Shown: positions 2,178-15,988, counted from the first letter of the stretch. The stretch: DNA of 64,000 bases from Bacteroidales bacterium (GCA_017649855.1 JAGCGA010000033.1:1016-65015), one strand, 5' to 3'. The notes: generated by a model not told the origin, from the sequence alone. Made by a program: numbers and translations.

Positions 2178-3431
2178 TTATTTAGCGCCTAACGGTTCAC
2201 ATCTTTCTTTTCGCACCACGCGGTCGCGCATGAGACGCGGATCAGTAAAATTGCGGGCGATGTTCTGCACCAATTTGCGATAATCGTCCTTGTTTTCATC
2301 CATCTGATGATAATACGGTTTTATGGAAACACAATTCGGATGTTCAAAAAGAGTGGAAAGAAGTGTTCGGTCTGTAACACCACAAGAGTGCCCCATTATG
2401 CAAATCTGGTAAAAATCCGATTCAATGAAAGCGAGCATTCTCCGATAATTGGAAGCATCAAGATAACGAAATGATTTGATGTGACGCAAATATTCATTGT
2501 CGTTTTTCTTCATAAGCACATTGTATTCGTCATCACGCTCATCCCCATATCCGAAGATAACGCTCTTTGGATTATTAAGTGTCCCGTGAATGTGATTGGC
2601 CTCAAACTTGCCCGGGTTTTCCGATTTAGGAAGGTACATGTCTGCAGTGTTAGTGTAGTTGAAATTGAGAAGCATAATGTTGTCAGGTAGTCGGTATGCC
2701 GGACATGCACTCTCCATAACATTATCGAATATACCAGAACGAATATCTGTCGCAAATTCGTTCTTAAAGTATTTAATAGAACTTTCTGCTGTCAGTAAGG
2801 ATCCATAATCTGTATAATATCCATCAATCAGTTTTTCCCATTCAACATCATCATAATTCAACCGATCCTTCATCATCTCATCCCATTGACTTTTTGATCC
2901 TATGGCTATTTCTTCTTTAGAGATTGGTGCCAATATCTGTTTTTGGATAGTAGGATTGAAGGAATATGTTGGTAGAGAATTCAAATATTCAATGAGTTTT
3001 TCCTTGATGAATTCTAAATCGTCATTAATCTGCTTCGGATCATCACTTGATTTTAAGAAAGCGTAGTAGATGTCTTCAATACTACACCAAGGTTTATATA
3101 TTTCTTTGCAAATTTTCTCAAATAAAAGGCTTGAATTGTAATAATCACATAGATTTCTGTCTCGTTGTGCTATTTCTAATACTTCTTGTTCAGTCCAAGG
3201 TTCATTAGGTTGACTTTTGCAGTAATGATATTTCCACACATCATACCAATTGACTAAATTAATGCTGTCCGATAAAGTAAAGGAGTAAAATCTGTCTCTC
3301 AAAGTTCTCCCACATTCATACAATAGTCGCGCACCCCATTCTTTCCTATACCAATTAATGAAATCAGAATAACGCGTAGGTAGTCTATGTGCCAAATCGA
3401 AGCCGTTACCGATTAGAACCAGTCTGTTCAT
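2178..3431 (-). CDS. AbiH-family abortive-infection protein
   Basis: The N-terminus MNRLVLIGNGFDLAHRLPTRYSDFINWY is the hallmark AbiH start (IGNGFDLAHGLPT.Y.DF). At 417 aa the size is typical. Confidence 0.75.
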   Translation of the reverse strand: MNRLVLIGNGFDLAHRLPTRYSDFINWYRKEWGARLLYECGRTLRDRFYSFTLSDSINLVNWYDVWKYHYCKSQPNEPWTEQEVLEIAQRDRNLCDYYNSSLLFEKICKEIYKPWCSIEDIYYAFLKSSDDPKQINDDLEFIKEKLIEYLNSLPTYSFNPTIQKQILAPISKEEIAIGSKSQWDEMMKDRLNYDDVEWEKLIDGYYTDYGSLLTAESSIKYFKNEFATDIRSGIFDNVMESACPAYRLPDNIMLLNFNYTNTADMYLPKSENPGKFEANHIHGTLNNPKSVIFGYGDERDDEYNVLMKKNDNEYLRHIKSFRYLDASNYRRMLAFIESDFYQICIMGHSCGVTDRTLLSTLFEHPNCVSIKPYYHQMDENKDDYRKLVQNIARNFTDPRLMRDRVVRKERCEPLGAK

Positions 3432-3486
3432 ATTTTTCTTGTTATTGAAAAATCATTCAATATACACCACATTATCATCACATCCA

Positions 3487-4218
3487 CTATTTTTCTTTTG
3501 ATTTCCCTCCCGCAGCATCTTCTGAAATTGGCAACGCAATAAATTCATTCAATTCCTTTCTTCTCAATCTCCATTGAGGAAGATAGTGCGTTAGGATGGC
3601 TTCAAACATTTTATTGTGATTCTTGACCTTCAAATGGGTCAATTCATGTGCCACAACATATTCAATACAGGAACGCGGAACCCTTGCAAGTTCCAAATTG
3701 AAGAGTAAATGCCTTTTCTTGTTGATGCAACTCCCCCATTGTGAACGCATTAATTTGACCTCCCATGTGACATCGGGCTCTTCCATTTTATTGGTCCATT
3801 CAGCAACCATCTCGGACAACAATGACTTTAATTCTCTCCTTTGCCATTCTCTTAGCACCTCTGCACGATGTTCAGTTGTCGTCCCTGGCTGGACTGTCAT
3901 TATTAACCAATCACCCTGTTTGGTAATTGTATGACTACATCTCGGTTTTTCCTCAATACGAAGACGGTAGCGTTGCCCGAAATGGTAGTATGTCTCGCCA
4001 GTCTCATAATTACGTTCGGTTTGCCTTGCTTGTTCAAGAACTTCCCTTCGTTTTTCTTCTATCCATTCCCATTTTGATATAATAAACGAACGAATATCAT
4101 TATCATCAAGATATTCGGGTGAAGACACGTGAACACGAGCATCTGGAGGATAAACCGCCAAATGCAAGTTTTTTATATTCTTGCGTTCTACTGCTATCTC
4201 AATTCCGTTCAGTTCCAT
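3487..4218 (-). CDS. DUF45/YgjP-like (M48-family) zinc metallopeptidase associated with type I R-M
   Basis: It carries the WGSC motif and HELTHL (HExxH). Its ATG at 4218 overlaps the hsdR stop codon as TGATG. The track's TTG start at 4221 is an alternative. Confidence 0.8.
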   Translation of the reverse strand: MELNGIEIAVERKNIKNLHLAVYPPDARVHVSSPEYLDDNDIRSFIISKWEWIEEKRREVLEQARQTERNYETGETYYHFGQRYRLRIEEKPRCSHTITKQGDWLIMTVQPGTTTEHRAEVLREWQRRELKSLLSEMVAEWTNKMEEPDVTWEVKLMRSQWGSCINKKRHLLFNLELARVPRSCIEYVVAHELTHLKVKNHNKMFEAILTHYLPQWRLRRKELNEFIALPISEDAAGGKSKEK

Positions 4219-7200
4219 CAATCAGGAAATTCTATAGTATGAGCGATGATTATCCCTAAAATATTTTCTGCTTCGAAACCCTCACCTTTTAAAGCTTTCT
4301 CTATCTGCCTTAACAATTGCTTCTTGATTTGCTTGTTCTGCCTGAATCTGGGTTGAGCAAATTGTTTAGCTATCGCATATATTCTTAAGGTTAGTTCTAT
4401 GTTCCCGCCCAAATTATCACACAGATTTTTCTTTGCGGCAGTGTCGAGGCGAGCATCCACAACATTGCCTTGCATCAATTCCTCACCAATCTTCTTGATC
4501 TGCTTCAAAAATTCCTTATACTCTATGACACCTTGTCGCAATTCTTCCAATAAACGATTAATACGATCAGAAAAACGCCTATATTCTTCAGGGTTTTGCT
4601 CGCGTTTACGATTAACGACACGACGGACATTCGCCGTCATAGTTTCAGCTACTCCACGCTGACCTCCCAACTCTTGTTCTGCTTCTATATCTACTTCAAC
4701 ATCTCCCGTCAACTCATTTATACTGATAATATCCAAGAAAGAAAAATCATTCAATTCTGCTAATTTCTCACTTCTAGGAGCAACGATATATCGGTCAAGC
4801 AGGCTGCGCATTTGCGCATCGTACAGTTTCATATCCACATAGTCGCCACTTCGTTGCATCAAGGCGTGACGTAACTCGTCATAGTCTTTCACCTTCCGAT
4901 AAATGCTTTCTGTTTCTTCTTTTGTAAACCCAGCTTCTTCCATCTCCATTGCAATGGCTGCATAACGACGGGACAAACGGTTTACTGCATTGTAGAAATC
5001 CTCACGTTTTGTAGCATTCTTAATAACCTCTGCTGCTTGTTCGTCCACAGGCGTATCCGGCTTGAAGCAGAAATAGTCGAAGAAGTTATCCAATTTCCGA
5101 GGCAATTCTACCGGTTCACACAATCGCTCAACATTTTGCAAAGCCTTTTCCAGTTCTTCACGACCTTTCTTTAATCGAGACTTTAACAATTCTGCTATTT
5201 CATCCTTTTGGAAGCCTTCAGTAGTTTCGCCATTTGTGTAACTCTCAATGGCTCCTTCAATAAAGTTGAACAACCCCCTGTAGTCAACGATATAACCAAA
5301 CTCCTTCTCTTCGCCATTCAGTCGGTTTACTCGACAAATAGCTTGGAATAAAGTGTGGTCTATCATCTTTCGGTCAAGATAGAGATAAGTTGCAGTAGGA
5401 GCATCGAAACCCGTCAACAATTTATCTACCACAATGAGCAACTTCATCTCGGCAGGACGGTTAATGAATTGGTCTTTTGCCCATTCCTCAAATTGTTCAG
5501 GAGTACGCTTGCCCATCATCTCCTTTGACCACTTATATTTCAGTTCTTCCTCCGTTTTCTTTTCACCAGCAAAACCAGAGGCCAAATTAATATCGGGTTC
5601 ATAGCTTGAAACGACCGCACAATGATTGGTAAAACCCTCTTCCTTGAACAAAGACCAATATTTATATGCCTCATAGATACTTTCGCAAACCAGCATGGCA
5701 TTACCATAGCCACCTGTTAGAGCCGGCTTTGTTTCCATATCAAATAGGATGTCGGCTATGACTCTTCTCATAGGTTGGTCACTGCTATAGATATTCTGTA
5801 ATTGCGCCCACCTGTCTTTCAGTGCTTCTTTGGCCTTTGGCGTAAGTTGCTGGGTGTGAATTTCAAAGAGCGCATTCAGCTTATCTGGGTCTTGCAATTC
5901 CTTTTCTACATTTCTTGCTTCGTAACGCAAATCTAGGATGACACCATCTTTTACAGCTTCATCGAAACGGTAAGAATGTATATAGCGGCCAATATTATCC
6001 TGACTTGACTTGCGTTCACCTTTCTTCAACAATGGTGTACCCGTGAAACCAATCATCATGACGTTTTCGCCCATAATCATCCTCATGGCCTTGTGCAACA
6101 AACCGCCTTGTGTGCGGTGACATTCGTCAATGAAAACAAACAGATTGCCTTTTGCCTTGAAATCCACAGGCAATTTCTCTGCCACTTCCTTTAGGTATTG
6201 ATCTATTGAACGCTTTCCAGCCTTTTGATATTCCTCTAAATTTTCTTTATCCGACGATGCACCAAATTTATGAATAAGTGTGGTGATCATCCATGGGGCT
6301 GTTGCATCTAACTTTGTCAACAGATCATTGCCGCTCTTGGCATGGTAAAAATCAATGTTATGATTCTTCAAATCAAGCAAGCCTGAATTGCGCAAGCCAT
6401 TGGTAATTTGCTTGTCAAGTTCGTCACGGTCGGTAATAATAACAACTCTTGCATCCTCAATATTCTGTTTAATCCATTTTGCCAGCCACACCATCGTGAG
6501 GCTCTTGCCCGAGCCTTGTGAATGCCAGATAATACCGCTGTCCTTTTTTTCAATGCGAGGGATGGCCGCGCGAAGTGCAAAGAATTGATTGGGACGCGCC
6601 ACTTTCTTTGTGCCACCATCATAAATAATACAATACTGTATGAAATGTATCAATCGCGTAGGCTCCAACATCTGCAACACTGAACGGTCCAACTCATTCT
6701 GAACATCGGCAAATGTTGGCTTGTCAAGCTGTTCATCATCGCTTATACCTGTAGGCTCTTTCCAATGCAAATAGTATTTCTGAGGTGTACAAGTAGTTGC
6801 ATAGAACAACCCTTCACTTGGATTGCCAGCCATACAAAGTTGCGAAGTGGTAAAAAACTGCGGAATATAACCTGATTGCTGGTTACGATAGTTCTGACGG
6901 ATGCCCTCTGCTACAGGAATGCCCTGTCGTTTCAACTCCAGCACTACCATTGCAATGCCGTTGATATAAACCACAATGTCTGGGCGACGGTGTTCCGTTA
7001 CAGGCAGACCATCACACCTAACCGTTACTTCTTCGGCAATCTCAAAGATATTGTTCTTCGGATTTTTCCAGTCAACCAGATGCACGGTCAGGTCTGTTTC
7101 GTTCAAGCCTCTGTGGATACTGACGCCATAGCATAACCGTTCATAAACCTTTTCGCTGGTTTCCATCAACGTCTCGAAGTTAGAACACTGCGCTATTTCC

Positions 7201-7421
7201 TCTTTCAGTTTCCTAACAGCCGACTTCGCCTGTTCACTTGTCAATTTCTGCTCACTTTGCTTCGTCAGAAAATCCATCAAGGACTCTTCCCGCAAATTGC
7301 TGTTTTCCACCTCTTTCAGGTTGCCGATATATTGATAGCCAGGCAGCCTGTCCTTGACAAGCCTCAACACTTGCTCCTGCGTCTCACGTTCACTTTGGGT
7401 TATGTTGTCAATGAATAGCAT
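4218..7421 (-). CDS. hsdR: type I restriction endonuclease subunit R
   Basis: The protein is 1067 aa. It has an N-terminal PD-(D/E)xK-like nuclease motif (RPDIVVYINGIAMVVLELK), a Walker A motif (SQGSGKSLT), a DEAH-type box (FIDECHRTQ) and helicase motif VI (QAICRVNR). Confidence 0.9.
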   Translation of the reverse strand: MLFIDNITQSERETQEQVLRLVKDRLPGYQYIGNLKEVENSNLREESLMDFLTKQSEQKLTSEQAKSAVRKLKEEIAQCSNFETLMETSEKVYERLCYGVSIHRGLNETDLTVHLVDWKNPKNNIFEIAEEVTVRCDGLPVTEHRRPDIVVYINGIAMVVLELKRQGIPVAEGIRQNYRNQQSGYIPQFFTTSQLCMAGNPSEGLFYATTCTPQKYYLHWKEPTGISDDEQLDKPTFADVQNELDRSVLQMLEPTRLIHFIQYCIIYDGGTKKVARPNQFFALRAAIPRIEKKDSGIIWHSQGSGKSLTMVWLAKWIKQNIEDARVVIITDRDELDKQITNGLRNSGLLDLKNHNIDFYHAKSGNDLLTKLDATAPWMITTLIHKFGASSDKENLEEYQKAGKRSIDQYLKEVAEKLPVDFKAKGNLFVFIDECHRTQGGLLHKAMRMIMGENVMMIGFTGTPLLKKGERKSSQDNIGRYIHSYRFDEAVKDGVILDLRYEARNVEKELQDPDKLNALFEIHTQQLTPKAKEALKDRWAQLQNIYSSDQPMRRVIADILFDMETKPALTGGYGNAMLVCESIYEAYKYWSLFKEEGFTNHCAVVSSYEPDINLASGFAGEKKTEEELKYKWSKEMMGKRTPEQFEEWAKDQFINRPAEMKLLIVVDKLLTGFDAPTATYLYLDRKMIDHTLFQAICRVNRLNGEEKEFGYIVDYRGLFNFIEGAIESYTNGETTEGFQKDEIAELLKSRLKKGREELEKALQNVERLCEPVELPRKLDNFFDYFCFKPDTPVDEQAAEVIKNATKREDFYNAVNRLSRRYAAIAMEMEEAGFTKEETESIYRKVKDYDELRHALMQRSGDYVDMKLYDAQMRSLLDRYIVAPRSEKLAELNDFSFLDIISINELTGDVEVDIEAEQELGGQRGVAETMTANVRRVVNRKREQNPEEYRRFSDRINRLLEELRQGVIEYKEFLKQIKKIGEELMQGNVVDARLDTAAKKNLCDNLGGNIELTLRIYAIAKQFAQPRFRQNKQIKKQLLRQIEKALKGEGFEAENILGIIIAHTIEFPD

Positions 7422-7433
7422 AACAAATAGGGT

Positions 7434-9248
7434 TTAGTTGTTCTCTTGAGGCACAAAACCATTGGCGCGCATCCAGTCAAGTCCTGTTTGCCAGCGGTTA
7501 CGGCTGATGCGTTTCTTTGATTCATGCCAGTTGTTCAGGACTTCGTTCAGTATATCGTCATCCGTAAAGGGCTGATGGCTTTGCAACAAGTCACCCCATG
7601 CACTGTAAAGGGTCGCGATAATCTCGCACTGCTCCGTTGGGCTGGATTTAAAGGTGTCGATTATCTTCTCAAACATAGGCATAACATCAGCGTAGTATTT
7701 TTCGAAATACTTCTTGTGTCCGCCTCGGTTCTGCATAGGTATATACTGGTATCCTTTGTCCTCTTTCTTTGCCTCAAACCATTTTTGTTTCTTCAACTGG
7801 CTATCAATAGAGCGGAGCGCTCTGTTGTCGTATGGGCCAGCAGCATCCCTATGATAGTGGGAGTCTATGTTGATGTGGCAAAGATGCTCTGTCAGGAAAA
7901 TCAGCTTTTCCATCTTCACATGTCCGAAGGTAGGTTCCTCGCAAAGACAATCGGCTATCTCTGCCGCCAATACGCTTCTCTTGAAGTACACATTTGCCGC
8001 TTTTGCTTTCGGAAGGTCTTGTTGTTTCGTCTCTGCTTCTATCAATCTTATTTGCCCTGTCAGCAGTTTTTGCATCATCCCTTCTTTCAACCGTATATAT
8101 TTATCTCTTTCTTCTTCGAGAGATTCGATTTCGTTGTCAATCGTAGTGAGAACATTGGCAATCGCTACTTGTTCTTCGTATAAGCAAGGTAGATTAATCT
8201 TTAACGGAGCAATATCTTTGGGGTGAATATGAGGTTGAGCCCCGCCTGTTTGTAATCGAAATATATCCTTTTGCTTTAGCAGTAAAACATAGTATATAAA
8301 ATCGATGAAGTAATCATTGCCTTCCGATATTGTTGAACAGTCTGTCGCAAATATCGGTCCTTTATAGTATGAAATGTATCCCGCATTTGCACCAGAGGCA
8401 CTGATGGTAATTGTTCTACCATTACGATTAGCAACATTATGGAACCCAGCAGGTGTTATTCCTCCAGCAATTACAGGAATATTACCAAATTGATACTCTG
8501 ACGATTTCAACATACATCCACGTTGGATACTGACAATTGTTCCTAATTCACTCTCCACCCATTCCCCATCGAATCCCGGCAACCTTTTCTTTCCAGTCAG
8601 CAATTGCTGCATAGCACCTTGCTTTATCAAGCGTTTCTTCTTTATTGTCTTTGAAAGGGAAGAAATCAGCTTGTCAACACCTGATAATGCCTCCGCTATC
8701 CGGCTCTGCTCCTGCTTGTCTTTGGGATAAACGACAATAGTGGAATCAATGGCCTTCTTCGATAGAGAAAGAACTTTGATTCCTTGCATGTGTGGAAGCA
8801 ACTGATTGTGATACAATGAAGAATTAAAAAAATATCCCAAGTATTTTGGGGAAAACAAATCTTGCTTTGGTCTGTTGACAATTGTATGTAATCCTGCAAC
8901 AATATCACCATTAACATTAATCAGTTCTGTTGCCTTTCCAGCTGTTTCGTCTTCAGCAGTATCAGCAACAATTATATCTCCTGAACGAAGTAACACATTT
9001 GGATTAATCGATATTCCTGTATCATCATTGATGTATGGTAACTCATCTGTTTCAGCGTCAACAATTTCTCCAAATTTCACAAGGACATCACCATAGTGTA
9101 CATTTCGCACAATTCCACTTTCATAATTCAAGCAGTCTCTTGATAATGTATTGGAATTAACATGAAGGAAAGTTTCTCCAACCGAAGACTTTTCCCAGTC
9201 TTCAGGAATCAACCCTATCTCCGTCTGTTTGAATTTTGTTTCAATCAT
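7434..9248 (-). CDS. hsdS: type I R-M specificity subunit with an extra C-terminal domain of about 200 aa
   Basis: It has two TRD halves, each followed by the conserved helices (KRLIKQGAMQQLLTGKKRL and YIRLKEGMMQKLLTGQIRL). The canonical HsdS ends near aa 404, but the ORF continues to aa 604. Confidence 0.85.
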   Translation of the reverse strand: MIETKFKQTEIGLIPEDWEKSSVGETFLHVNSNTLSRDCLNYESGIVRNVHYGDVLVKFGEIVDAETDELPYINDDTGISINPNVLLRSGDIIVADTAEDETAGKATELINVNGDIVAGLHTIVNRPKQDLFSPKYLGYFFNSSLYHNQLLPHMQGIKVLSLSKKAIDSTIVVYPKDKQEQSRIAEALSGVDKLISSLSKTIKKKRLIKQGAMQQLLTGKKRLPGFDGEWVESELGTIVSIQRGCMLKSSEYQFGNIPVIAGGITPAGFHNVANRNGRTITISASGANAGYISYYKGPIFATDCSTISEGNDYFIDFIYYVLLLKQKDIFRLQTGGAQPHIHPKDIAPLKINLPCLYEEQVAIANVLTTIDNEIESLEEERDKYIRLKEGMMQKLLTGQIRLIEAETKQQDLPKAKAANVYFKRSVLAAEIADCLCEEPTFGHVKMEKLIFLTEHLCHINIDSHYHRDAAGPYDNRALRSIDSQLKKQKWFEAKKEDKGYQYIPMQNRGGHKKYFEKYYADVMPMFEKIIDTFKSSPTEQCEIIATLYSAWGDLLQSHQPFTDDDILNEVLNNWHESKKRISRNRWQTGLDWMRANGFVPQENN

Positions 9249-9259
9249 TGCAATTTACT

Positions 9260-11713
9260 TTAAAATTCAACACCCATTTCTTGAAGATAACCCTTCACAA
9301 TATCGCGATAGCGGTTTACGTCGGCTTCCATCTCTGGTAGCGTCACCTTATACCGTTCGTTCAATGCCGTGATAGAAGTAATGATGTTTTGATGCTCAGC
9401 GGTCATCAAGGCTTGCAAACGGCTCTGCATGTCGGGCATCCACTTGTCATCAAACACCATCGTGCGTATTTCTTCTTCCCTCAAAGCCTTGTACTTCTTC
9501 AAGACATTCGCTGTGAGTCGGGCAACTTTGTCTTTCAAGTTCTTCTTTAGTTGCTCTTGCTCCTTGAAATGCTTCAAGAAGTCCTCCCACACAGGTATAG
9601 TGTCAGCATTTTCCTTGGGATTATTCTTACCATCCTTCCACAAAAAGCCAACGGCTTTGCAAAACTTTGCATTCACCTTGTCGCTCTCAATATCCTCAAA
9701 AGCATCAGCATATTCCTCCATAATGGTTCCCATTGCCACCTGTTCTGCGTCTATCAACTGCCGAGTATTGGTCACATCGGCTTGTTCCTTGGCAAAATAA
9801 CGATTGACAAGGATTGAGGAAGGCACGAGGTCGCAGGTCAAGTCCTCATAGCTGTAGGTTTTCTTTACTTCACCCTTTTTGTTGGTGGGCAGTTCCACGG
9901 TCACCTTCCAACCATCGCGACTAATCAGATAAAGGTCATCCTGCATTGTCACATCATTCCAGTAGGTCATCAGTTCATCATAGACAGCGTATGCATCGAC
10001 CAACGAACGACTGGACTTGAAAATGCGTAATATCTCGTCGCTCCAACGAATAATAGCCTTGCGGGGTACACTGCCAACACCCAGCGTTTGCAATTCCTCG
10101 TGCATAAACTGATGCCATGTTTCAAAAGCTTTGCCGTAATTGTCAGCCTGTAGCAGATAACTCTCATCTTGTTCTATAAGCTGGGCTAAATGGCTGCCGG
10201 CTTCTTTAGTCAGTTGCAAATAGCCGTCGTTCTCGTAGGGCTCAAATATCTTGTCGCGAAGCGACGGGCACACATTCCATAGTGTTTCCAAGGAATCAAT
10301 ATCAGCCAAAGGCAAGCCTCCATGAATATGGGCATGGAGATTTTGCTCAACTTCAGTAGAGCGTGGCGTAATGTAGCGGGGAATGTTCAGATTGTATTCG
10401 TTGCGTTCTATTTCTTCCCATTCCACCAAGCGGCAAAAGTGGTCTATCTGCTTTCCGGCCTCCCACGCATCACTGATACGGCGGATGTCCTGCTCACGAA
10501 GTCTGTTCTTTGCACCGTCCTTCTTGAATCCCTCTTTTGCATCCATCATAAAAATACCTTTTGAGGTTGCAGCGTTTTTCTTGTCAATAATGATGATGCA
10601 GGCCGGAATACCAGTGCCATAAAACAGGTTTGAGGGAAGTCCAATGATGCCACGTATCACCTTTTTGTCAATCAGATGTTTCCTGATTTTGGCTTCGGCC
10701 TCGCCTTTTTCTACCGAGCCACGGAACAACACGCCATGAGGTAGGATACAGGCACCCATGCCATCTGGTTTTATCGACTCGATGATGTGCAATAGAAACG
10801 CATAGTCTCCCTTGGATGTTGGCGGCACACCAATGTCCTTTTTCCATCGGCTATAAACATCATCTTCTTTGGCCGACTTCATCCACTTCTTCAGGGAAAA
10901 CGGAGGATTGGCAACCACATAGTCAAACTGGTCAAGCTTGACACCATGAGTATGCAAAGGCGTGTTCAATGTATCACCTTGTTGCAGGTCTGCCGTCATC
11001 ATGCCATGCAGAATCATATTCATCTTGGCCATGCTTATGGTAGAAAGATCTTTCTCCTGACCATAGATGCCAACGTTTACACCCTCTTTGGGAGCCTCGT
11101 CTCTGGCGCGAAGCAACAACGAACCCGAGCCGCAGGCAGGGTCGTAGATGTTTATTTGCGGACGATGGTCTTTGCTGATGCCAATAATGCGAGCCATCAA
11201 ACGGCTTACCTCGGCAGGAGTATAGAACTGTCCTTTAGACTTTCCCGACTGTGAGGCAAAATTGCGCATCAGATATTCGTATGCATCACCTATCAAATCG
11301 TCGTCACCAGCTCGGTTGGTACCGAAGTCGAGGTTCTTGTTTTCAAAAACTTCAACGAGACCCGTGATGGTATCAACCTTGTCCTTCCCCTTGCCCAACT
11401 TGTCTTCATTGTCGAAGTCGGCATTGACGAACACATTGTCAAGTCCAAAAGCGTTAGCTATTTTCGCCAACTTCACATTGATTTGCTCACCAATATCATT
11501 CTTGTGCTTCAGTTTGCGAATCTCATCGAAAGTGCAATCATCAGGCAGATCCTCCATCATGTCCTCATCTCCAGCCTTCTTCTTATCGCTGATATATTTC
11601 AAGAACAGCATGACCAGCACATAGTCCTTGTATAGACTTGCATCCATACCACCACGGAGTGCATCACAGCCCTCCCACAGCATACTATATAATTGTGATT
11701 TCTTGATTGCCAT
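9260..11713 (-). CDS. hsdM: type I R-M N6-adenine DNA methyltransferase subunit M (long form, 817 aa)
   Basis: It has the HsdM N-terminal domain (KSQLYSMLWEGCDALRG), SAM motif I (DPACGSGSLL) and catalytic motif IV (NPPF in VVANPPFSLKKW). A helical tail of about 330 aa follows. Confidence 0.9.
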   Translation of the reverse strand: MAIKKSQLYSMLWEGCDALRGGMDASLYKDYVLVMLFLKYISDKKKAGDEDMMEDLPDDCTFDEIRKLKHKNDIGEQINVKLAKIANAFGLDNVFVNADFDNEDKLGKGKDKVDTITGLVEVFENKNLDFGTNRAGDDDLIGDAYEYLMRNFASQSGKSKGQFYTPAEVSRLMARIIGISKDHRPQINIYDPACGSGSLLLRARDEAPKEGVNVGIYGQEKDLSTISMAKMNMILHGMMTADLQQGDTLNTPLHTHGVKLDQFDYVVANPPFSLKKWMKSAKEDDVYSRWKKDIGVPPTSKGDYAFLLHIIESIKPDGMGACILPHGVLFRGSVEKGEAEAKIRKHLIDKKVIRGIIGLPSNLFYGTGIPACIIIIDKKNAATSKGIFMMDAKEGFKKDGAKNRLREQDIRRISDAWEAGKQIDHFCRLVEWEEIERNEYNLNIPRYITPRSTEVEQNLHAHIHGGLPLADIDSLETLWNVCPSLRDKIFEPYENDGYLQLTKEAGSHLAQLIEQDESYLLQADNYGKAFETWHQFMHEELQTLGVGSVPRKAIIRWSDEILRIFKSSRSLVDAYAVYDELMTYWNDVTMQDDLYLISRDGWKVTVELPTNKKGEVKKTYSYEDLTCDLVPSSILVNRYFAKEQADVTNTRQLIDAEQVAMGTIMEEYADAFEDIESDKVNAKFCKAVGFLWKDGKNNPKENADTIPVWEDFLKHFKEQEQLKKNLKDKVARLTANVLKKYKALREEEIRTMVFDDKWMPDMQSRLQALMTAEHQNIITSITALNERYKVTLPEMEADVNRYRDIVKGYLQEMGVEF

Positions 11714-11715
11714 TG

Positions 11716-13665
11716 TTAATTGTCTTTTGTGTTATGACTTTCGTCAAATTCTTTTTCCAGTCGTTCCCGTAATCCTTTACGACAAAAATAATCTTTAAAC
11801 TTTGTCTTCCTTAAGAGCAATGTTCCAAATGTTGTTGCTACTGCAGCACCAATTGCAATAATAATAGACCAAATTGTTGGAAGAGCGGCCTTATAAAATT
11901 CGTTTACGCACCACAAAGCACAGATTGCAAGAATAAGTATAACATTTATCCATGTATCTTTGGCCAATTTACTCATTTTTGAATTAACGAACTCATCTTT
12001 ATCTTTTAGGTATTTGTCTTTTTCTAATAATTTGAGGCGCTCGTTCAAACCTTGTATTTGCAAATCTTTTTCTTCTATCTTCTTATTTAGTCCCTCTATT
12101 TCTGTCTCTGCATCATGTTTCTGTTTTAGTTTGAGGTTTTCTTCTTCACTAGTATATTCTTTCAACTTCTTAGCGAACTGTTCAACTGTCACATTGTCTG
12201 CAAGTAATGATTCGTCAACCTCTTTTTGTGTCAAATGACCTTCTGCCATTCGAATGCATAAATTAAAACTATCTTTTTCGGTAATACTTCCTATTGACAA
12301 AGCATCATCAGCTCGTTTCTTTATTATTTTCAAAGTCTCTCTTGTTGGCATCTTTGACCTTCTATATTTTGTCACATAAGAAGCCAAACCTCCCTTGGTA
12401 ATATCACTGATTGAGATGTTTTGTCCCTGAGCCGGATTTGACAACCATAATAAAACCAATAATTCATTAGCACTTATCAAATACCTATCATGTATCTTCC
12501 TTCCATAACTATAATCATAAGGTGAATATGAATTATGTAGGAACCAGCACTTGGCGTCAACAAATTCTTTTATATTTTGCCCTCTTTTCTTTTCAACATA
12601 ATATTTTGCCACCACATCATTAAGTGCACTTTCTTTGTTGTTTTGTCTGCTTTGGATCAGGTCTTTATATTCTCTTGATTTACTTGCTTTTTCAACAATT
12701 TCCCTGATCTGAGCTTCCTTTATGATAGTAATACCTTTATCATAAATTGTCTTAAAGACATTATCCTTTATCCTTTCAAGAGTGGTTTTGTCTATATTTC
12801 TTCGAATACAAGCGCTAAACACATCTGCGCATTTCACAGACCCTATATAGTCTTTGTTAGCAAAATCATTGATGCGGTTGCTAAGCAATATTTGAATTTG
12901 TTCAAAAGTACTATAAAGCATAGAAAATCGATAACCTAATTGACGACACAAATCGAATACTTGATTACAAGTATGGAAAGCATCTTCCGTATTAAGGTCG
13001 ATCAAACTAATAAAGAAGTTGGTATCTAATAATAATTCAGCATCCGTAACTTTTGTGGTGATATTTTGCTTCAAATAAGACTCAATAATACTACCTAAAT
13101 AGATCTTACCCATCAATTCAAATATAGAGGAGTTGTCAAGCCGTTCAGAAACATATTTTGGCACAAAATAATCTAAATCCAGTAAGTCCGAACGTTTGTC
13201 GGAGAACAACTCCATATTTTGGGCAAGAATAAATTTCTTTAGATCCTCAAAATCAAATTGATAACCATTTTCTTGGCAATAGGTACAATAATCATCTTTT
13301 AAAAGATTAATATTCTGTCCTTCCTGCTCGAACAATTCGTCAATATCATTAAACACATAACTTTTAATAATGAAAGAACCATCATTAAATAGTTCGAATA
13401 TGTTTTTATCATTTATTTGATATTCAATATTCTCTAATATCTTGCCAAGTATCGGCAGAGGAATGGAAATTTCAAATACAGCAAATATTTTGTCAGAGAT
13501 TTCTGTTAGTGAACGTCCCTTAAAATCTATAAGTCCGTGTTCTTTAGCATATTCTGATAAAGCTTTCTTCACCAGAGGAATATATAATTCTGATATAGCA
13601 GCCTTAGAAGAAGATGTTTCTTTCAAGTATCCAAGTAGCGAATATGTTGCTAACAATTTATCCAT
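11716..13665 (-). CDS. uncharacterised 649-aa protein with an N-terminal domain, a PIN-like DTN motif, a coiled coil and two C-terminal TM helices
   Basis: LLLDTNFFISLIDL at aa 211-224 is a typical PIN strand-1 motif. A heptad-rich segment spans aa 505-560 (EENLKLKQKHDAETEIEGLNKKIEEKDLQIQGLNERLKLLEKDK). Two hydrophobic stretches follow (WINVILILAICALWCV and LPTIWSIIIAIGAAVATTFGTLLL). Its stop codon lies 2 nt before the hsdM ATG. Confidence 0.6.
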   Translation of the reverse strand: MDKLLATYSLLGYLKETSSSKAAISELYIPLVKKALSEYAKEHGLIDFKGRSLTEISDKIFAVFEISIPLPILGKILENIEYQINDKNIFELFNDGSFIIKSYVFNDIDELFEQEGQNINLLKDDYCTYCQENGYQFDFEDLKKFILAQNMELFSDKRSDLLDLDYFVPKYVSERLDNSSIFELMGKIYLGSIIESYLKQNITTKVTDAELLLDTNFFISLIDLNTEDAFHTCNQVFDLCRQLGYRFSMLYSTFEQIQILLSNRINDFANKDYIGSVKCADVFSACIRRNIDKTTLERIKDNVFKTIYDKGITIIKEAQIREIVEKASKSREYKDLIQSRQNNKESALNDVVAKYYVEKKRGQNIKEFVDAKCWFLHNSYSPYDYSYGRKIHDRYLISANELLVLLWLSNPAQGQNISISDITKGGLASYVTKYRRSKMPTRETLKIIKKRADDALSIGSITEKDSFNLCIRMAEGHLTQKEVDESLLADNVTVEQFAKKLKEYTSEEENLKLKQKHDAETEIEGLNKKIEEKDLQIQGLNERLKLLEKDKYLKDKDEFVNSKMSKLAKDTWINVILILAICALWCVNEFYKAALPTIWSIIIAIGAAVATTFGTLLLRKTKFKDYFCRKGLRERLEKEFDESHNTKDN

Positions 13666-13692
13666 AATTATACAGTAGTAATCGCAATCAAA

Positions 13693-14358
13693 TTATTTCT
13701 CCCTCTCCAATCTAATCTCCCACAAGGTTTTCCCATTATGGCTAAAATACTTTGGTCCCTGGTAGGATTCGCTCTTGTTGTGCATTCCTTCGGGCAGGTA
13801 GGTGCCGCAAAAGGCAGAAAGGCTCCAGAGGCGGCCTTCATACTCCACCTTGTTTTTGCCTGCTACTTTTACAGGAAGGTTCAAAGCATCGAATATGATA
13901 GTGTCACCCACATTCAGGCCGATCATACTGAAATCAAAAGGTTTGCGTTGCTCTTTCTTCTCTTCCTTCTCTTTGATTTTCTGACCTTCCACAATTGGAT
14001 AAATCTGATAAGGCTTATCCGAATCATATCGCATAATGACGGCGTCCTCAATCGCACAGGCTATATCCATAAAAATGTCCAGTGCCACTTGTGGGTCAAC
14101 ATTGAAAAACTCCCTGTTTTGGCGTATGCGCAAATCAGTAAGACGATCTATCGTCTTATGCACTAACTTCTCCACCTCACCATATTTGACGGTTTTCATC
14201 GTGGCATAAATGTCGAATGGAAGTGGCACGGCTGTGTTATCCAATTCTTTTGAACGGACATCCACCGGGCGTGAACTCTTGCCTATTTTCACCCAATCCT
14301 CCTTAAAACTGGGATTCGTCAGAATGTAAACGTATCCTTCTTGCGGCTCTTTGGTCAT
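13693..14358 (-). CDS. T5orf172 / GIY-YIG-superfamily domain protein with an unassigned C-terminal domain
   Basis: The N-terminus GYVYILTNPSFKEDWVKIGKSSRPVDVRSKELDNTAVPLPF...EVEKLVHKTI...REFFNV fits the T5orf172 pattern. It is the first gene of the array. Confidence 0.7.
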   Translation of the reverse strand: MTKEPQEGYVYILTNPSFKEDWVKIGKSSRPVDVRSKELDNTAVPLPFDIYATMKTVKYGEVEKLVHKTIDRLTDLRIRQNREFFNVDPQVALDIFMDIACAIEDAVIMRYDSDKPYQIYPIVEGQKIKEKEEKKEQRKPFDFSMIGLNVGDTIIFDALNLPVKVAGKNKVEYEGRLWSLSAFCGTYLPEGMHNKSESYQGPKYFSHNGKTLWEIRLEREK

Positions 14359-14386
14359 ACAAAATGTTTTTCTACAATTACAGCCG

Positions 14387-14394
14387 CAAAAATA
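14387..14394 (-). promoter_or_regulatory. -7 promoter box TATTTTTG for the defence array
   Basis: The minus strand reads TATTTTTG, about 29 nt upstream of the ATG at 14358. It is the only clear TAnnTTTG box I see upstream of the co-directional array. Confidence 0.45.
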
Positions 14395-14399
14395 ACAAA

Positions 14400-14745
14400 T
14401 AATTGCAAAAAATCCGCATTTTCACACACCGGATTTCTTCGCCCTGCCCTCCCCTCCCGCGGCGCCTCTCGCCGTCATCAGGGCACGCGCGGGGCGCACC
14501 GCGGGCGTGGCCGGAACGCCATCCATCACACCCGTTCCGTAATCCACGACTACAGATATGGAACCCCTACGGGGTTGTCATATGGAGGCGGGGCCATGCA
14601 TTCCTACCGGACGTTGACCCCTGCGGGGTCTGGGGAATGACATCAAGGTATCTTGATGCATTCTATTACTACCCCGGCCTGCGGCCACCCCTTCTACCAT
14701 AGAAGGGGAATTTAGGGACACCGCATTCCATTGAACGTAAACCTG
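14400..14745. repeat. GC-rich multi-hairpin element B (REP-like)
   Basis: It is a chain of short hairpins: aatccg..cggatt, aacccctacggggtt, gacccctgcggggtc, catcaaggtatcttgatg and ccccttctaccatagaagggg. It shares the tcctacc..ttgacccctgcggggtc.gggg block with element A, in inverted orientation. Confidence 0.5.
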
Positions 14746-14771
14746 TTAAGTAATTGGAAAATAGTATTACG

Positions 14772-15947
14772 CTATGGCAGTTTGGACAATTCCCGATACA
14801 AAGCCAACCCTTTCGCCGTCAACAAGTATTTTTGGCGGGGATGTCGGGGAGATTGGGGGTACAACATGCGGACATAACCATCCGAAATGGCAGGGTTAAG
14901 ATGGTATTCCAAGAAATTGGGTCGATGTTTCAATCCTAACACACTCATAAGTTGAGATATAGAAAACTCATCACGTCCGATTATCCTTATCAGTTCAATA
15001 ATAAAAGGATTGTCTGTATGGAACAAATCCCGTACTTGTTCGGGTACTTGTTCGGGTACTTGTTCGGGTATTTGTCCTGTACTTGCAGGGGCCGCCAGAT
15101 TGGGCTGCAGGCTCCACTCCTTTGCGGGGTGGATATGCAGATATCGGTTTCTCAAATCCCATTGCTCTCCCAACAACATATTGCGGAAGAATCGCTCCAA
15201 ATAAACGGGAGAGTAGTCAATGCCTTTCACTGCACTCTTGTAGTTGGCGCGCACCAGCGCATTGCGAAAATACCAGGAATGATCGGCAAACATGTTGTTG
15301 TCTACCTTGAAACCGATGTGCCGAAGATAAAGAATGGTAAAGACCGCCGTGGTGCGGGTGTTGCCCTCACCAAATGGATGAATCTGCCATAATCCTGAAA
15401 CAAAGCGGGTGAGATGCGTTATGAATTCGTCAGACGAAACCCCTTGATAACTGTACTGACGTTCCTGTTCTATATCGTACTCCACGGCCCTTTGAAGGTC
15501 TTCCCAGTTGAGATAATTCACAGATTCGTATTCCAACACCCACTCCTTCTTGGAAATATCATAGTCGCGAACCTTACCGGCGTGTTTGAATACGCCTTCG
15601 AAAATCCTCCGATGCAAAGCGACAAATCCTTTGGAGCTAAAGTCAAAAGACTCAGAGGAGAGTATCTTGGTGATGTTGGCCGAAACTTTATCTGCCTCTT
15701 GCTTTTCGTCGTCATCGGGTTCACGCTTTGTCTTAGACAGATAATATGTTTTTATCAAATCACGCACCTCATCAATGTTGATTTCACCCTCAATGTGCTT
15801 GCGGGCAGTTTCTTTCAGATAGTCCGAAGTCGTAAGCCCGTCCACAGCCTGCAGTCCAATAGCAGTCTGCCAAATGGAGGCCTTTTCCTTTTTGCCTGGT
15901 TCCACCTGTCGGATGTATTCGTCAAAATCTGGGTATTGAGAGTTCAT
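14772..15947 (-). CDS. Fic/DOC family protein (AMPylase-type) with a C-terminal winged-helix-like domain
   Basis: It carries the Fic motif HPFGEGNTRTTAVF (HxFx[DE]GNxRxxR). The ATG at 15947 (MNSQYPDF) is more likely than the TTG at 15956 used in the track. Confidence 0.85.
   Translation of the reverse strand: MNSQYPDFDEYIRQVEPGKKEKASIWQTAIGLQAVDGLTTSDYLKETARKHIEGEINIDEVRDLIKTYYLSKTKREPDDDEKQEADKVSANITKILSSESFDFSSKGFVALHRRIFEGVFKHAGKVRDYDISKKEWVLEYESVNYLNWEDLQRAVEYDIEQERQYSYQGVSSDEFITHLTRFVSGLWQIHPFGEGNTRTTAVFTILYLRHIGFKVDNNMFADHSWYFRNALVRANYKSAVKGIDYSPVYLERFFRNMLLGEQWDLRNRYLHIHPAKEWSLQPNLAAPASTGQIPEQVPEQVPEQVRDLFHTDNPFIIELIRIIGRDEFSISQLMSVLGLKHRPNFLEYHLNPAISDGYVRMLYPQSPRHPRQKYLLTAKGLALYRELSKLP
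15032..15079. repeat. 12-bp tandem repeat (3 perfect copies and 1 degenerate copy) inside the Fic gene
   Basis: gtacttgttcgg occurs three times, followed by gtatttgtcctg. It encodes PEQVPEQVPEQV in the linker before the C-terminal domain. Confidence 0.9.
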
Positions 15948-15980
15948 ATTATCCAATTCATCAGTTTGATATTACATCTG

Positions 15981-15988
15981 CAAAGATA
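15981..15988 (-). promoter_or_regulatory. -7 promoter box TATCTTTG for the Fic gene
   Basis: The minus strand reads TATCTTTG, about 33 nt upstream of the ATG at 15947. Confidence 0.45.

Follow-up and report, generated by a model that had tools for sequence, protein, structure and literature searches.

Comparison with related loci best supports reading a seven-gene array from a Bacteroidales bacterium as a modular restriction-modification (R-M) hub with swappable accessory effectors, not as a fixed system. The array lies on the minus strand, at positions 2178-14394, of a 64,000-nt stretch of DNA (GCA_017649855.1 JAGCGA010000033.1:1016-65015; hereafter the window, with positions counted from its first letter). 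Its second gene, gene 2, belongs to a previously undescribed protein family with a predicted PIN-like nuclease core, and members of this family are found beside R-M genes of at least six families. We give an even chance to a fuller reading, in which the array is a horizontally acquired island, the R-M operon serves as a hub with interchangeable add-ons, and gene 2 is a latent second-line nuclease. From its upstream end, the array is made up as follows:

14387-14394, minus strand: Bacteroidetes-type -7 promoter box TATTTTTG (TAnnTTTG), starting 36 nt upstream of the gene 1 ATG; assigned from the consensus only
13693-14358, minus strand: gene 1, T5orf172 protein of 221 amino acids (aa), matching Pfam T5orf172 and PADLOC PDC-S57
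11716-13665, minus strand: gene 2 (649 aa), with predicted winged helix, PIN-like core, coiled coil and transmembrane hairpin in an AlphaFold2 (AF2) model; no family match
9260-11713, minus strand: gene 3, hsdM of the long form (817 aa), matching N6_Mtase, HsdM_N, PADLOC MTase_I and TIGR00497
7434-9248, minus strand: gene 4, hsdS (604 aa), with two target-recognition domains and a C-terminal appendage, matching Methylase_S and PADLOC Specificity_I
7437-8024, minus strand: the HsdS appendage (residues 409-604), matching the C-termini of PADLOC models
4218-7421, minus strand: gene 5, hsdR (1067 aa), matching HSDR_N, SWI2_SNF2, T1R_D3-like, PADLOC REase_I and TIGR00348
3487-4218, minus strand: gene 6, DUF45/YgjP-like (SprT-family) zinc metallopeptidase, matching PF01863, with the motif HELTH
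2178-3431, minus strand: gene 7, AbiH-family gene (417 aa) in a variable slot, matching PF14253

The original prediction, made from the sequence of the window, had described seven consecutive co-directional minus-strand genes with spacers of 27, 2, 11, 12 and 55 nt and a 1-nt overlap between hsdR and the DUF45 gene. The open reading frame (ORF) listing agrees with it on every one of these points, coordinates included; the hsdR/DUF45 junction reads TTGATG, such that the ATG at 4218 and the TGA stop share 1 nt, and an in-frame TTG at 4221 is an alternative DUF45 start. The domain labels given to the T5orf172 gene, hsdM, hsdS with its extra domain, hsdR, the DUF45 gene and abiH are supported by Pfam, PADLOC and NCBIfam. 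The label given to gene 2, PIN-like with a transmembrane segment, has no database support, yet is borne out by predicted structure, conserved residues and hydrophobic segments.

Gene 2 is matched by no family in Pfam, NCBIfam or PADLOC, and has no matches in plasmid and phage collections; its sole PHROG match is weak, and is to the transmembrane tail. Profile searches found no sequence relatives in the PDB, giving only coiled-coil noise (geminin, PKG). Nonetheless, we identified 378 close full-length homologues of 645-650 aa, and a profile search of 1.84 billion representatives recovered 337 clusters (50% identity) at E<=1e-3 and 162 at E<=1e-30, most of them 650-740 aa long and matching across the whole profile. 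With an alignment of 119 sequences, AF2 returned a model of gene 2 with a pLDDT of 89.6 and a pTM of 0.79; an earlier run on a shallow alignment of 15 sequences was unusable (pLDDT 59.5). The model consists, in order, of a winged-helix-like unit, an alpha/beta core, helical repeats, a long helix (residues 494-590) and a hydrophobic helix (597-619), within which we assign the following parts:

13363-13596, minus strand: winged helix-turn-helix-like unit (residues 24-101), helix-strand-helix-helix-strand-strand in the AF2 model; a tentative assignment
12421-13053, minus strand: PIN-like nuclease core (residues ~205-415), with D214, D228, T253, D350, R361 and N378
11956-12186, minus strand: coiled-coil stalk (residues 494-570), the soluble part of AF2 helix 494-590
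11812-11952, minus strand: transmembrane hairpin (residues 572-618), two hydrophobic helices

Assignment of the core as PIN-like draws on both its predicted fold and its conserved residues. The top Foldseek matches in the PDB are PIN proteins, PAE0151 (2fe1) and AF1683 (1w8i), with a probability of 0.98-0.99 and TM(target) of 0.46-0.54, followed by the PIN-like RNase P HARP, a VapC toxin and Exo1. In BFVD, a viral library, the top match is a 'PIN like domain' (E=6.9e-3, probability 1.00). D214, D350 and R361 are invariant across the alignment (119/119 sequences), T253 is present in 117/119, position 228 is acidic (E or D) in 105/119, and position 378 is N or D in 94/119 (N in 67, D in 27). It is by fold and residues only that gene 2 joins the PIN superfamily, with a modelled three-layer alpha/beta/alpha fold and the acidic residues expected of a member. 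What gene 2 shares with PIN-domain (VapC-like) nucleases is this fold, the D, E/D, D, N/D pattern and the conserved T; by contrast with those nucleases, its 649-aa product has a winged helix, a stalk and a transmembrane hairpin, and it has no antitoxin and no Pfam PIN match. The winged-helix-like unit resembles the Cdt1 C-terminal domain, ORC, Cdc6 and I73R in Foldseek searches (probability 0.44-0.77). At the other end of the protein, Kyte-Doolittle hydrophobic segments span residues 572-590 and 600-618; within the last 140 residues, one or more such segments occur in 118/119 family members, and two or more in 90.

The genomic neighbourhood of gene 2 was surveyed in 26 loci, found by scanning contigs from genomes and metagenomes, with relatives that are 39-95% identical; loci were annotated by tblastn/blastp against the window proteins and with Pfam. 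In 22 of the 26 loci, the gene 2 homologue has R-M genes no more than two genes away; they are directly adjacent and co-directional in 21, and two genes away in the remaining one (L009). When near-duplicates are collapsed (L002=L017, L001~L011, L005~L012, L006~L016), the linkage holds in 18/22. Spacers between gene 2 and the R-M genes are 2-30 nt, and in the window gene 2 is separated from hsdM by 2 nt. The R-M partners are diverse:

Window, L001, L002, L004, L005, L010, L012, L014: long-HsdM Type I with DUF45
L003: EcoEI-type, in the order hsdR-hsdM
L006, L016: EcoR124-type, with fused HsdM/S
L008, L021: HindI-type, with gene 2 between hsdS and hsdR
L015, L024: single-chain HSDR_N_2-N6_Mtase type
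L009: N6_N4 methyltransferase with RAMA

The loci without R-M genes within two genes of gene 2 are L013 (beside a SIR2 gene), L019, L023 (beside an HNH gene) and L026, too short for a judgement. The combination named in the gene-neighbourhood check suggested with the original prediction does recur: the T5orf172 gene, gene 2, hsdMSR and DUF45 are found together in L001/L011, L002/L017 and L010. The pair of genes 1 and 2 is also found beside a different, EcoEI-type R-M system in L003. For the Bacteroidales clade, the linkage of gene 2 to R-M genes is, on this sequence comparison, strong, and it is promiscuous as to R-M family; this promiscuity is better explained by a generic relationship than by a specific protein-protein partnership. 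PIN-like genes have been seen coupled to Type I subunits before, in arrangements not conserved between relatives (Matelska et al., 2017; PMC5499597). Those genes and gene 2 have their coupling to hsd genes in common; by contrast, the linkage of gene 2 holds over 39-95% identity. As a separate observation, about 7 kb with nine uncharacterised genes (L021 12057-19131) lies between the gene 2 homologue and hsdR of the HindI-type system in L021; one of the proteins encoded there, 642 aa long, has no Pfam match, and in L022 gene 2 is followed by a protein of equal length.

The R-M genes at the centre of the array are themselves conventional. HsdM matches PF02384 N6_Mtase (E=4.1e-104) and PF12161 HsdM_N (E=1.3e-14) in Pfam, is matched end to end by PADLOC MTase_I PDLC03027, and scores 266 bits with TIGR00497 (cut-off 242.75). 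HsdS has PF01420 Methylase_S in two stretches, and PADLOC Specificity_I covers its residues 2-403. HsdR has HSDR_N (E=2.8e-34), SWI2_SNF2 (E=9e-60) and T1R_D3-like domains in Pfam, and matches PADLOC REase_I PDLC03044 (E=3.9e-284) and TIGR00348 (458 bits). With the expected domains of HsdM, HsdS and HsdR all present, the predicted content of the locus is that of a complete Type I R-M operon of the long-HsdM class. Gene 6 matches PF01863 over 204/207 profile positions (E=1.4e-54) and carries the HExxH zinc motif as HELTH. DUF45 is kept after hsdR in every long-HsdM array (L001, L002, L004, L005, L010 and L012). It has 545 matches in the plasmid collection; of three plasmids inspected, each from a different phylum, all carry it immediately after hsdR, either abutting or slightly overlapping. 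These pairings, on Euhalothece, Klebsiella and Bartonella plasmids, have the same order and overlapping stop/start as that in the window, with no material difference. Hence, hsdM-hsdS-hsdR with a DUF45 peptidase is a standard, widespread arrangement. A literature search on DUF45/COG1451 with type I restriction, and on YwgA, found nothing useful.

What surrounds this core is variable. Gene 7 matches PF14253 AbiH with E=8.8e-27 (95.2 bits, cut-off 30.9), while the PADLOC AbiH model covers only its residues 3-28 (E=1.7e-8). AbiH is a Lactococcus abortive-infection gene predicted to be SIR2-like; measured against it, gene 7 (417 aa) lies above the Pfam threshold and is a distant member. A link of AbiH/SIR2-type genes to Type I R-M has been noted earlier (PMC3506569). 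The slot after DUF45 is occupied as follows:

Window, L002/L017, L010: AbiH
L005/L012: TIR protein
L001: helix-turn-helix (HTH)-M78 protein with its own promoter box
L004: empty

The HsdS appendage, ~196 extra C-terminal residues, is likewise a mobile domain. It matches the C-terminus of another HsdM model, PADLOC MTase_I PDLC03039 (479-700), and the long Specificity_I model PDLC03196. It is present in most long-HsdM arrays and missing from L010, where HsdS is 401 aa and the array is otherwise identical. Homologues of the appendage (n=88) are either fused to HsdS or stand alone at ~260 aa, and stand-alone copies are paired with a sigma-70-like 225-aa ORF in islands, or occur alone outside R-M loci. 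Profile searches found no PDB sequence relatives of the appendage, only coiled-coil noise. SocA_Panacea (PF13274) gave a weak match in 2/24 members of the appendage family (best E=0.0093) and left the window sequence itself unmatched, such that a Panacea-like appendage is a weak lead. As a side observation, the stand-alone homologues in L027 (7363-8783) and L028 (7363-8792) overlap an upstream 225-aa ORF of sigma-70/extracytoplasmic function (ECF)-type appearance, and the pair lies in islands beside ThiF/E2/JAB ubiquitin-like defence genes. This pair may be an unrecognised two-gene module. We considered whether the 225-aa partner is a relative of any window protein, and found no relation; it looks sigma-70-like.

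Gene 1 is linked to R-M genes independently of gene 2, as judged from its sequence contexts. It matches PF10544 T5orf172 (E=8.5e-14) and, over its full length (residues 5-220), PADLOC PDC-S57 (PDLC05041; E=8.9e-64); it consists of the T5orf172 domain, which is GIY-YIG-related, and a C-terminal domain at ~125-221 without a family match, and its family has 6328 homologues. Gene 1 precedes gene 2 in the window, L001/L011, L002/L017, L003 and L010. In L005, L012 and L014 an HTH gene stands in its place, and in L006 and L016 a 117-aa ORF does. Each of four close homologues (74-80% identity) neighbours R-M genes in the absence of gene 2:

L033: upstream of an N6_Mtase/Eco57I gene
L034-L036: upstream of EcoEI-type hsdR-hsdM
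L044-L046: 4 nt after hsdR
L048/L049: one small ORF from an MmeI-type enzyme

L047 and L048/L049 (~6001-11024) represent the same chromosomal site; all have the gene 1 homologue, two have a 1254-aa MmeI-type R-M enzyme, and L047 has none. Because the MmeI-type gene is present or absent at one site while gene 1 stays, gene 1 may be a marker of an R-M insertion hotspot. T5orf172 nucleases have been described as restriction components of N6-methyladenine (m6A) R-M systems, fused to RAMA (Iyer et al., 2016; PMC4738411). Gene 1 resembles them in having a T5orf172 domain beside adenine-methyltransferase R-M genes, and differs from them in that no RAMA domain was detected: RAMA was tried as the identity of the C-terminal domain, and six C-terminal regions gave no PF18755 match at E<=10, with a pairwise E of 0.73 against bona fide RAMA. 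Our literature search found no experimental test of PDC-S57.

These features of gene 1 bear on the possibility of selfish maintenance or regulation, in which genes 1 and 2 would act for the R-M cassette and not against phage, with gene 1 a homing-endonuclease-like or DNA-binding controller or mobiliser of the cassette and gene 2 an addiction toxin that stabilises it. Among T5orf172 proteins are nucleases as well as a domesticated repressor (CapR and Odn of the Vibrio PLE/ICP1 system; PMC8096241, PMC8263062), and homing endonucleases are among the PHROG matches of gene 1. Moreover, gene 1 lies at the 5' edge of differing R-M cassettes and persists without an R-M gene, and in L003 genes 1 and 2 have moved as a unit to another R-M type. 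We nevertheless consider this explanation improbable: gene 2 has no antitoxin-like partner and is absent from the plasmid and phage collections, Pfam finds no integrase or transposase in the array, and gene 1 appears, from a reading of its sequence, to retain the motifs that an active nuclease should have (GIY...YIG, R, E and N-x-E-F).

Nucleotide composition also differs from gene to gene. The GC content of the array is 32-46%, against 54% for the rest of the window. At third codon positions (GC3) it is 0.28 for gene 2, 0.33 for the hsdS recognition domains and 0.37 for abiH, and 0.52 for gene 1, 0.54 for hsdM and 0.56 for the HsdS appendage, with 0.80 for a flanking host gene. Since GC3 spans 0.28-0.56 among the seven genes, we take the array to be a recombinational mosaic.

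The original prediction suggested that the accessory genes and the R-M genes may work as one system rather than being independent neighbours. One part of this stands, since genes 1 and 2 are R-M-linked; the part that does not is a single integrated seven-gene system. An obligate, co-evolved multi-layer system in which each component needs the others would be consistent with the tight co-directional packing, with a promoter box at the head of the array and with the lack of terminator-like sites between array genes in a terminator scan. Indeed, the full seven-gene order is found in L002/L017, and in L010 except for the HsdS appendage. However, AbiH is replaced or absent in L001, L004, L005 and L012, and where it is present, in L002 and L010, it is only 52-53% identical to the window copy amid neighbouring genes at 89-96%; gene 1 is replaced in L005, L006, L012, L014 and L016, and occurs elsewhere without gene 2; gene 2 accompanies other R-M families; the appendage is absent from L010; the DUF45 pairing is ordinary; and GC3 is that of a mosaic. 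We therefore consider an obligate system very improbable, and prefer the modular hub.

A single clear TAnnTTTG box had been claimed for the array. The box at 14387-14394 is real, and in four loci (including L001, L002 and L003) gene 1 is preceded by a TAnnTTTG box at a distance of 25-39 nt; the claim that it is the only one fails, since eight such boxes occur on the minus strand inside the array. One of them is of particular relevance to the R-M genes:

11783-11790, minus strand: candidate internal promoter box TATTTTTG, 70-77 nt upstream of the hsdM ATG

The box before hsdM recurs at the same offset in L005 and L010, at -71 in L006 and at -63 in L003, and such a box, overlapping the conserved D-Y-F-C codons, is found 63-120 nt upstream of the first R-M gene, within the 3' end of gene 2, in 7/9 loci examined. 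The box at 11783-11790 coincides exactly with the gene 2 codons for Y-F-C of a conserved tail motif, KDYFCRK. It may be conserved merely through the conserved DYFC peptide; the reverse may also be true, with KDYFCRK kept because a promoter of the downstream R-M genes is hidden in it. There is no consensus TAnnTTTG before hsdS, hsdR, DUF45 or abiH in the window, and co-transcription of genes 3-7 is plausible from the sequence. A sigma-70 promoter scan is uninformative for Bacteroidetes.

The flanks of the array hold several further features. Pfam identifies type IX secretion system (T9SS) and DUF5689 genes in the array flank; together with a 100% identical protein named from a Bacteroidales metagenome-assembled genome, these identify the host as such a genome. 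At the downstream end, a plus-strand ORF (1516-2175, 219 aa) with a signal-peptide-like N-terminus is convergent with abiH, with 2 nt from stop to stop; it has no family match, and TAnnTTTG boxes lie at 1414-1429. Further out, a plus-strand DUF4143 ORF (43-831, 262 aa) has no Pfam AAA_14 ATPase match, unlike its full-length relatives, and is probably a truncated remnant because that match is missing; in L008 a full-length AAA_14-DUF4143 gene separates gene 2 from hsdR, and L010 has a relative upstream of the array. On the upstream side, a minus-strand Fic/DOC gene (14772-15956; Pfam Fic and Fic-like_C) is a co-directional island neighbour with its own TAnnTTTG at 15981-15988, and is outside the tight array. 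Another Fic gene (3-914) is directly upstream of the gene 2 homologue in L015. The spacer between the Fic gene and gene 1 (14359-14771, 413 nt) is GC-rich (53%), with several short palindromes apparent by eye; it is not a repeated element, as the window holds no second copy, and only a 49-nt stretch of it matches L002/L017. Within abiH, Rfam matches to archaeal C/D-box small RNAs (2826-2880, minus strand) are sub-threshold (31.5 bits, gathering score 44) and almost certainly due to chance.

We propose the following mechanism for the modular hub. The R-M operon would collect interchangeable accessory genes, with genes 1 and 2 in front and a variable abortive-infection slot behind. The predicted C-terminal transmembrane hairpin of gene 2 would anchor the protein in the inner membrane, and a coiled-coil stalk of ~95 residues would hold the winged-helix module and the PIN-like nuclease in the cytoplasm. 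The R-M enzyme would be the first line of defence, cutting unmethylated incoming DNA, and gene 2 a latent second line, triggered by evasion or inhibition of restriction or by the sensing of phage nucleic acid. Gene 2 would then halt infection by cleaving RNA or DNA, in the manner of PrrC and RloC of hsd loci, while gene 1, a predicted nuclease, and AbiH might provide further independent layers. The analysis shows gene content, conserved residues of catalytic type, linkage to R-M and modularity, along with a predicted fold and membrane anchor; from these comparisons and the predicted structure we infer nuclease activity, a trigger, any coupling to R-M, and co-transcription.

By analogy, gene 2 is probably PrrC-like in its logic. 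Toxin-like genes are embedded in Type I and Type III R-M loci (PMC3506569), and PrrC and PARIS are R-M guardians or back-ups (PMC12707154). Like PrrC/EcoprrI and RloC, gene 2 is a putative latent nuclease gene, co-directional in or beside hsdMSR, whose association is kept across loci (PMC12707154, PMC3506569). Unlike PrrC and RloC, gene 2 has no ABC-ATPase (AAA_13) or anticodon-nuclease domain, with a predicted PIN-like core, stalk and anchor instead, and it accompanies at least six R-M families, including some that are not Type I. Pfam, NCBIfam and PADLOC gave no AAA_13, PrrC or other ATPase match in gene 2. Because the ATPase and anticodon-nuclease domains are missing, we place gene 2 outside the PrrC/RloC family.

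Several observations count against a second-line nuclease coupled to R-M. No Pfam PIN family, as a curated sequence profile, matches gene 2 at E<=0.01, the PDB Foldseek E-values for PIN are weak (0.16-0.4), and the fourth canonical acidic position is N in this gene 2. Gene 2 is 78% identical in L003, beside an EcoEI-type system, as compared with 72-84% beside the long-HsdM type; such switching between R-M families, at little cost in sequence, argues against physical pairing of gene 2 with particular Hsd subunits. A GC3 of 0.28, against 0.52-0.54 in its two neighbours, argues for a separate origin of gene 2, and separate transcription of the R-M genes is possible given the candidate internal promoter before hsdM. 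Lastly, distant relatives of gene 2 (27-35% identity) are not embedded among R-M genes:

L029: distant relative on a mobilisable element
L030 (2630-7897)/L031: distant relative (27% identity), with a 188-aa ORF and then a 736-aa AAA_13 ATPase after it
L032: distant relative alone among housekeeping genes
L040/L041: distant relative convergent to a Type I operon
L042/L043: distant relative after an SLFN_AlbA_2-HATPase gene

AAA_13, the neighbour in L030, is presumably the ATPase family of PrrC and RloC.

Some of these observations would fit another explanation, in which genes 1, 2 and 7 are self-sufficient single-gene defences or toxins that share recombination hotspots, and at most a promoter, with the R-M genes, with no cross-talk between them. 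We regard such independence as a serious minority possibility. It is consistent with the free swapping of contents among accessory slots, with the sharp GC3 differences among genes, with distant gene 2 relatives being solo or convergent to R-M, and with the lack of a conserved small partner gene for gene 2; gene 1, for its part, is a single-gene candidate in PADLOC and is kept at one site both with (L048) and without (L047) an MmeI-type R-M gene. On the other hand, the genes near gene 2 are specifically R-M genes, not other defence genes, in 22/26 loci and across six R-M families, whereas generic island clustering would yield more varied neighbours; moreover, gene 2 has inserted between hsdS and hsdR in L008 and L021, and its spacers are only 2-30 nt. 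We favour a hub in which gene 2 would act as a second line behind R-M.

A bolder extension, which we consider somewhat unlikely, is that gene 2 founds a new class of generic restriction guardians: membrane-anchored PIN-like nucleases on a coiled-coil stalk that, where phage DNA enters the cell, would sense how restriction has fared or whether anti-restriction factors are present, with PDC-S57 as a second R-M-dependent module. Because it would need no particular Hsd partner, a generic guardian of this kind could plug into Type I, single-chain and Type II R-M systems alike.

R-M is the commonest bacterial defence, and to our knowledge only a few guardian or back-up effectors tied to it are understood, namely PrrC, RloC and PARIS. 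Gene 2 represents a sizeable family not covered by existing models, with a confidently predicted architecture and a linkage to R-M that crosses R-M families in gut and rumen Bacteroidales. The R-M association of gene 1 gives the PADLOC candidate PDC-S57 a context, and the variability of the array indicates that close packing of co-directional genes in such islands is a product of modular assembly and not the mark of a fixed multi-gene machine. The hypothesis that an accessory nuclease is coupled to R-M thereby becomes testable in an important, under-studied phylum.

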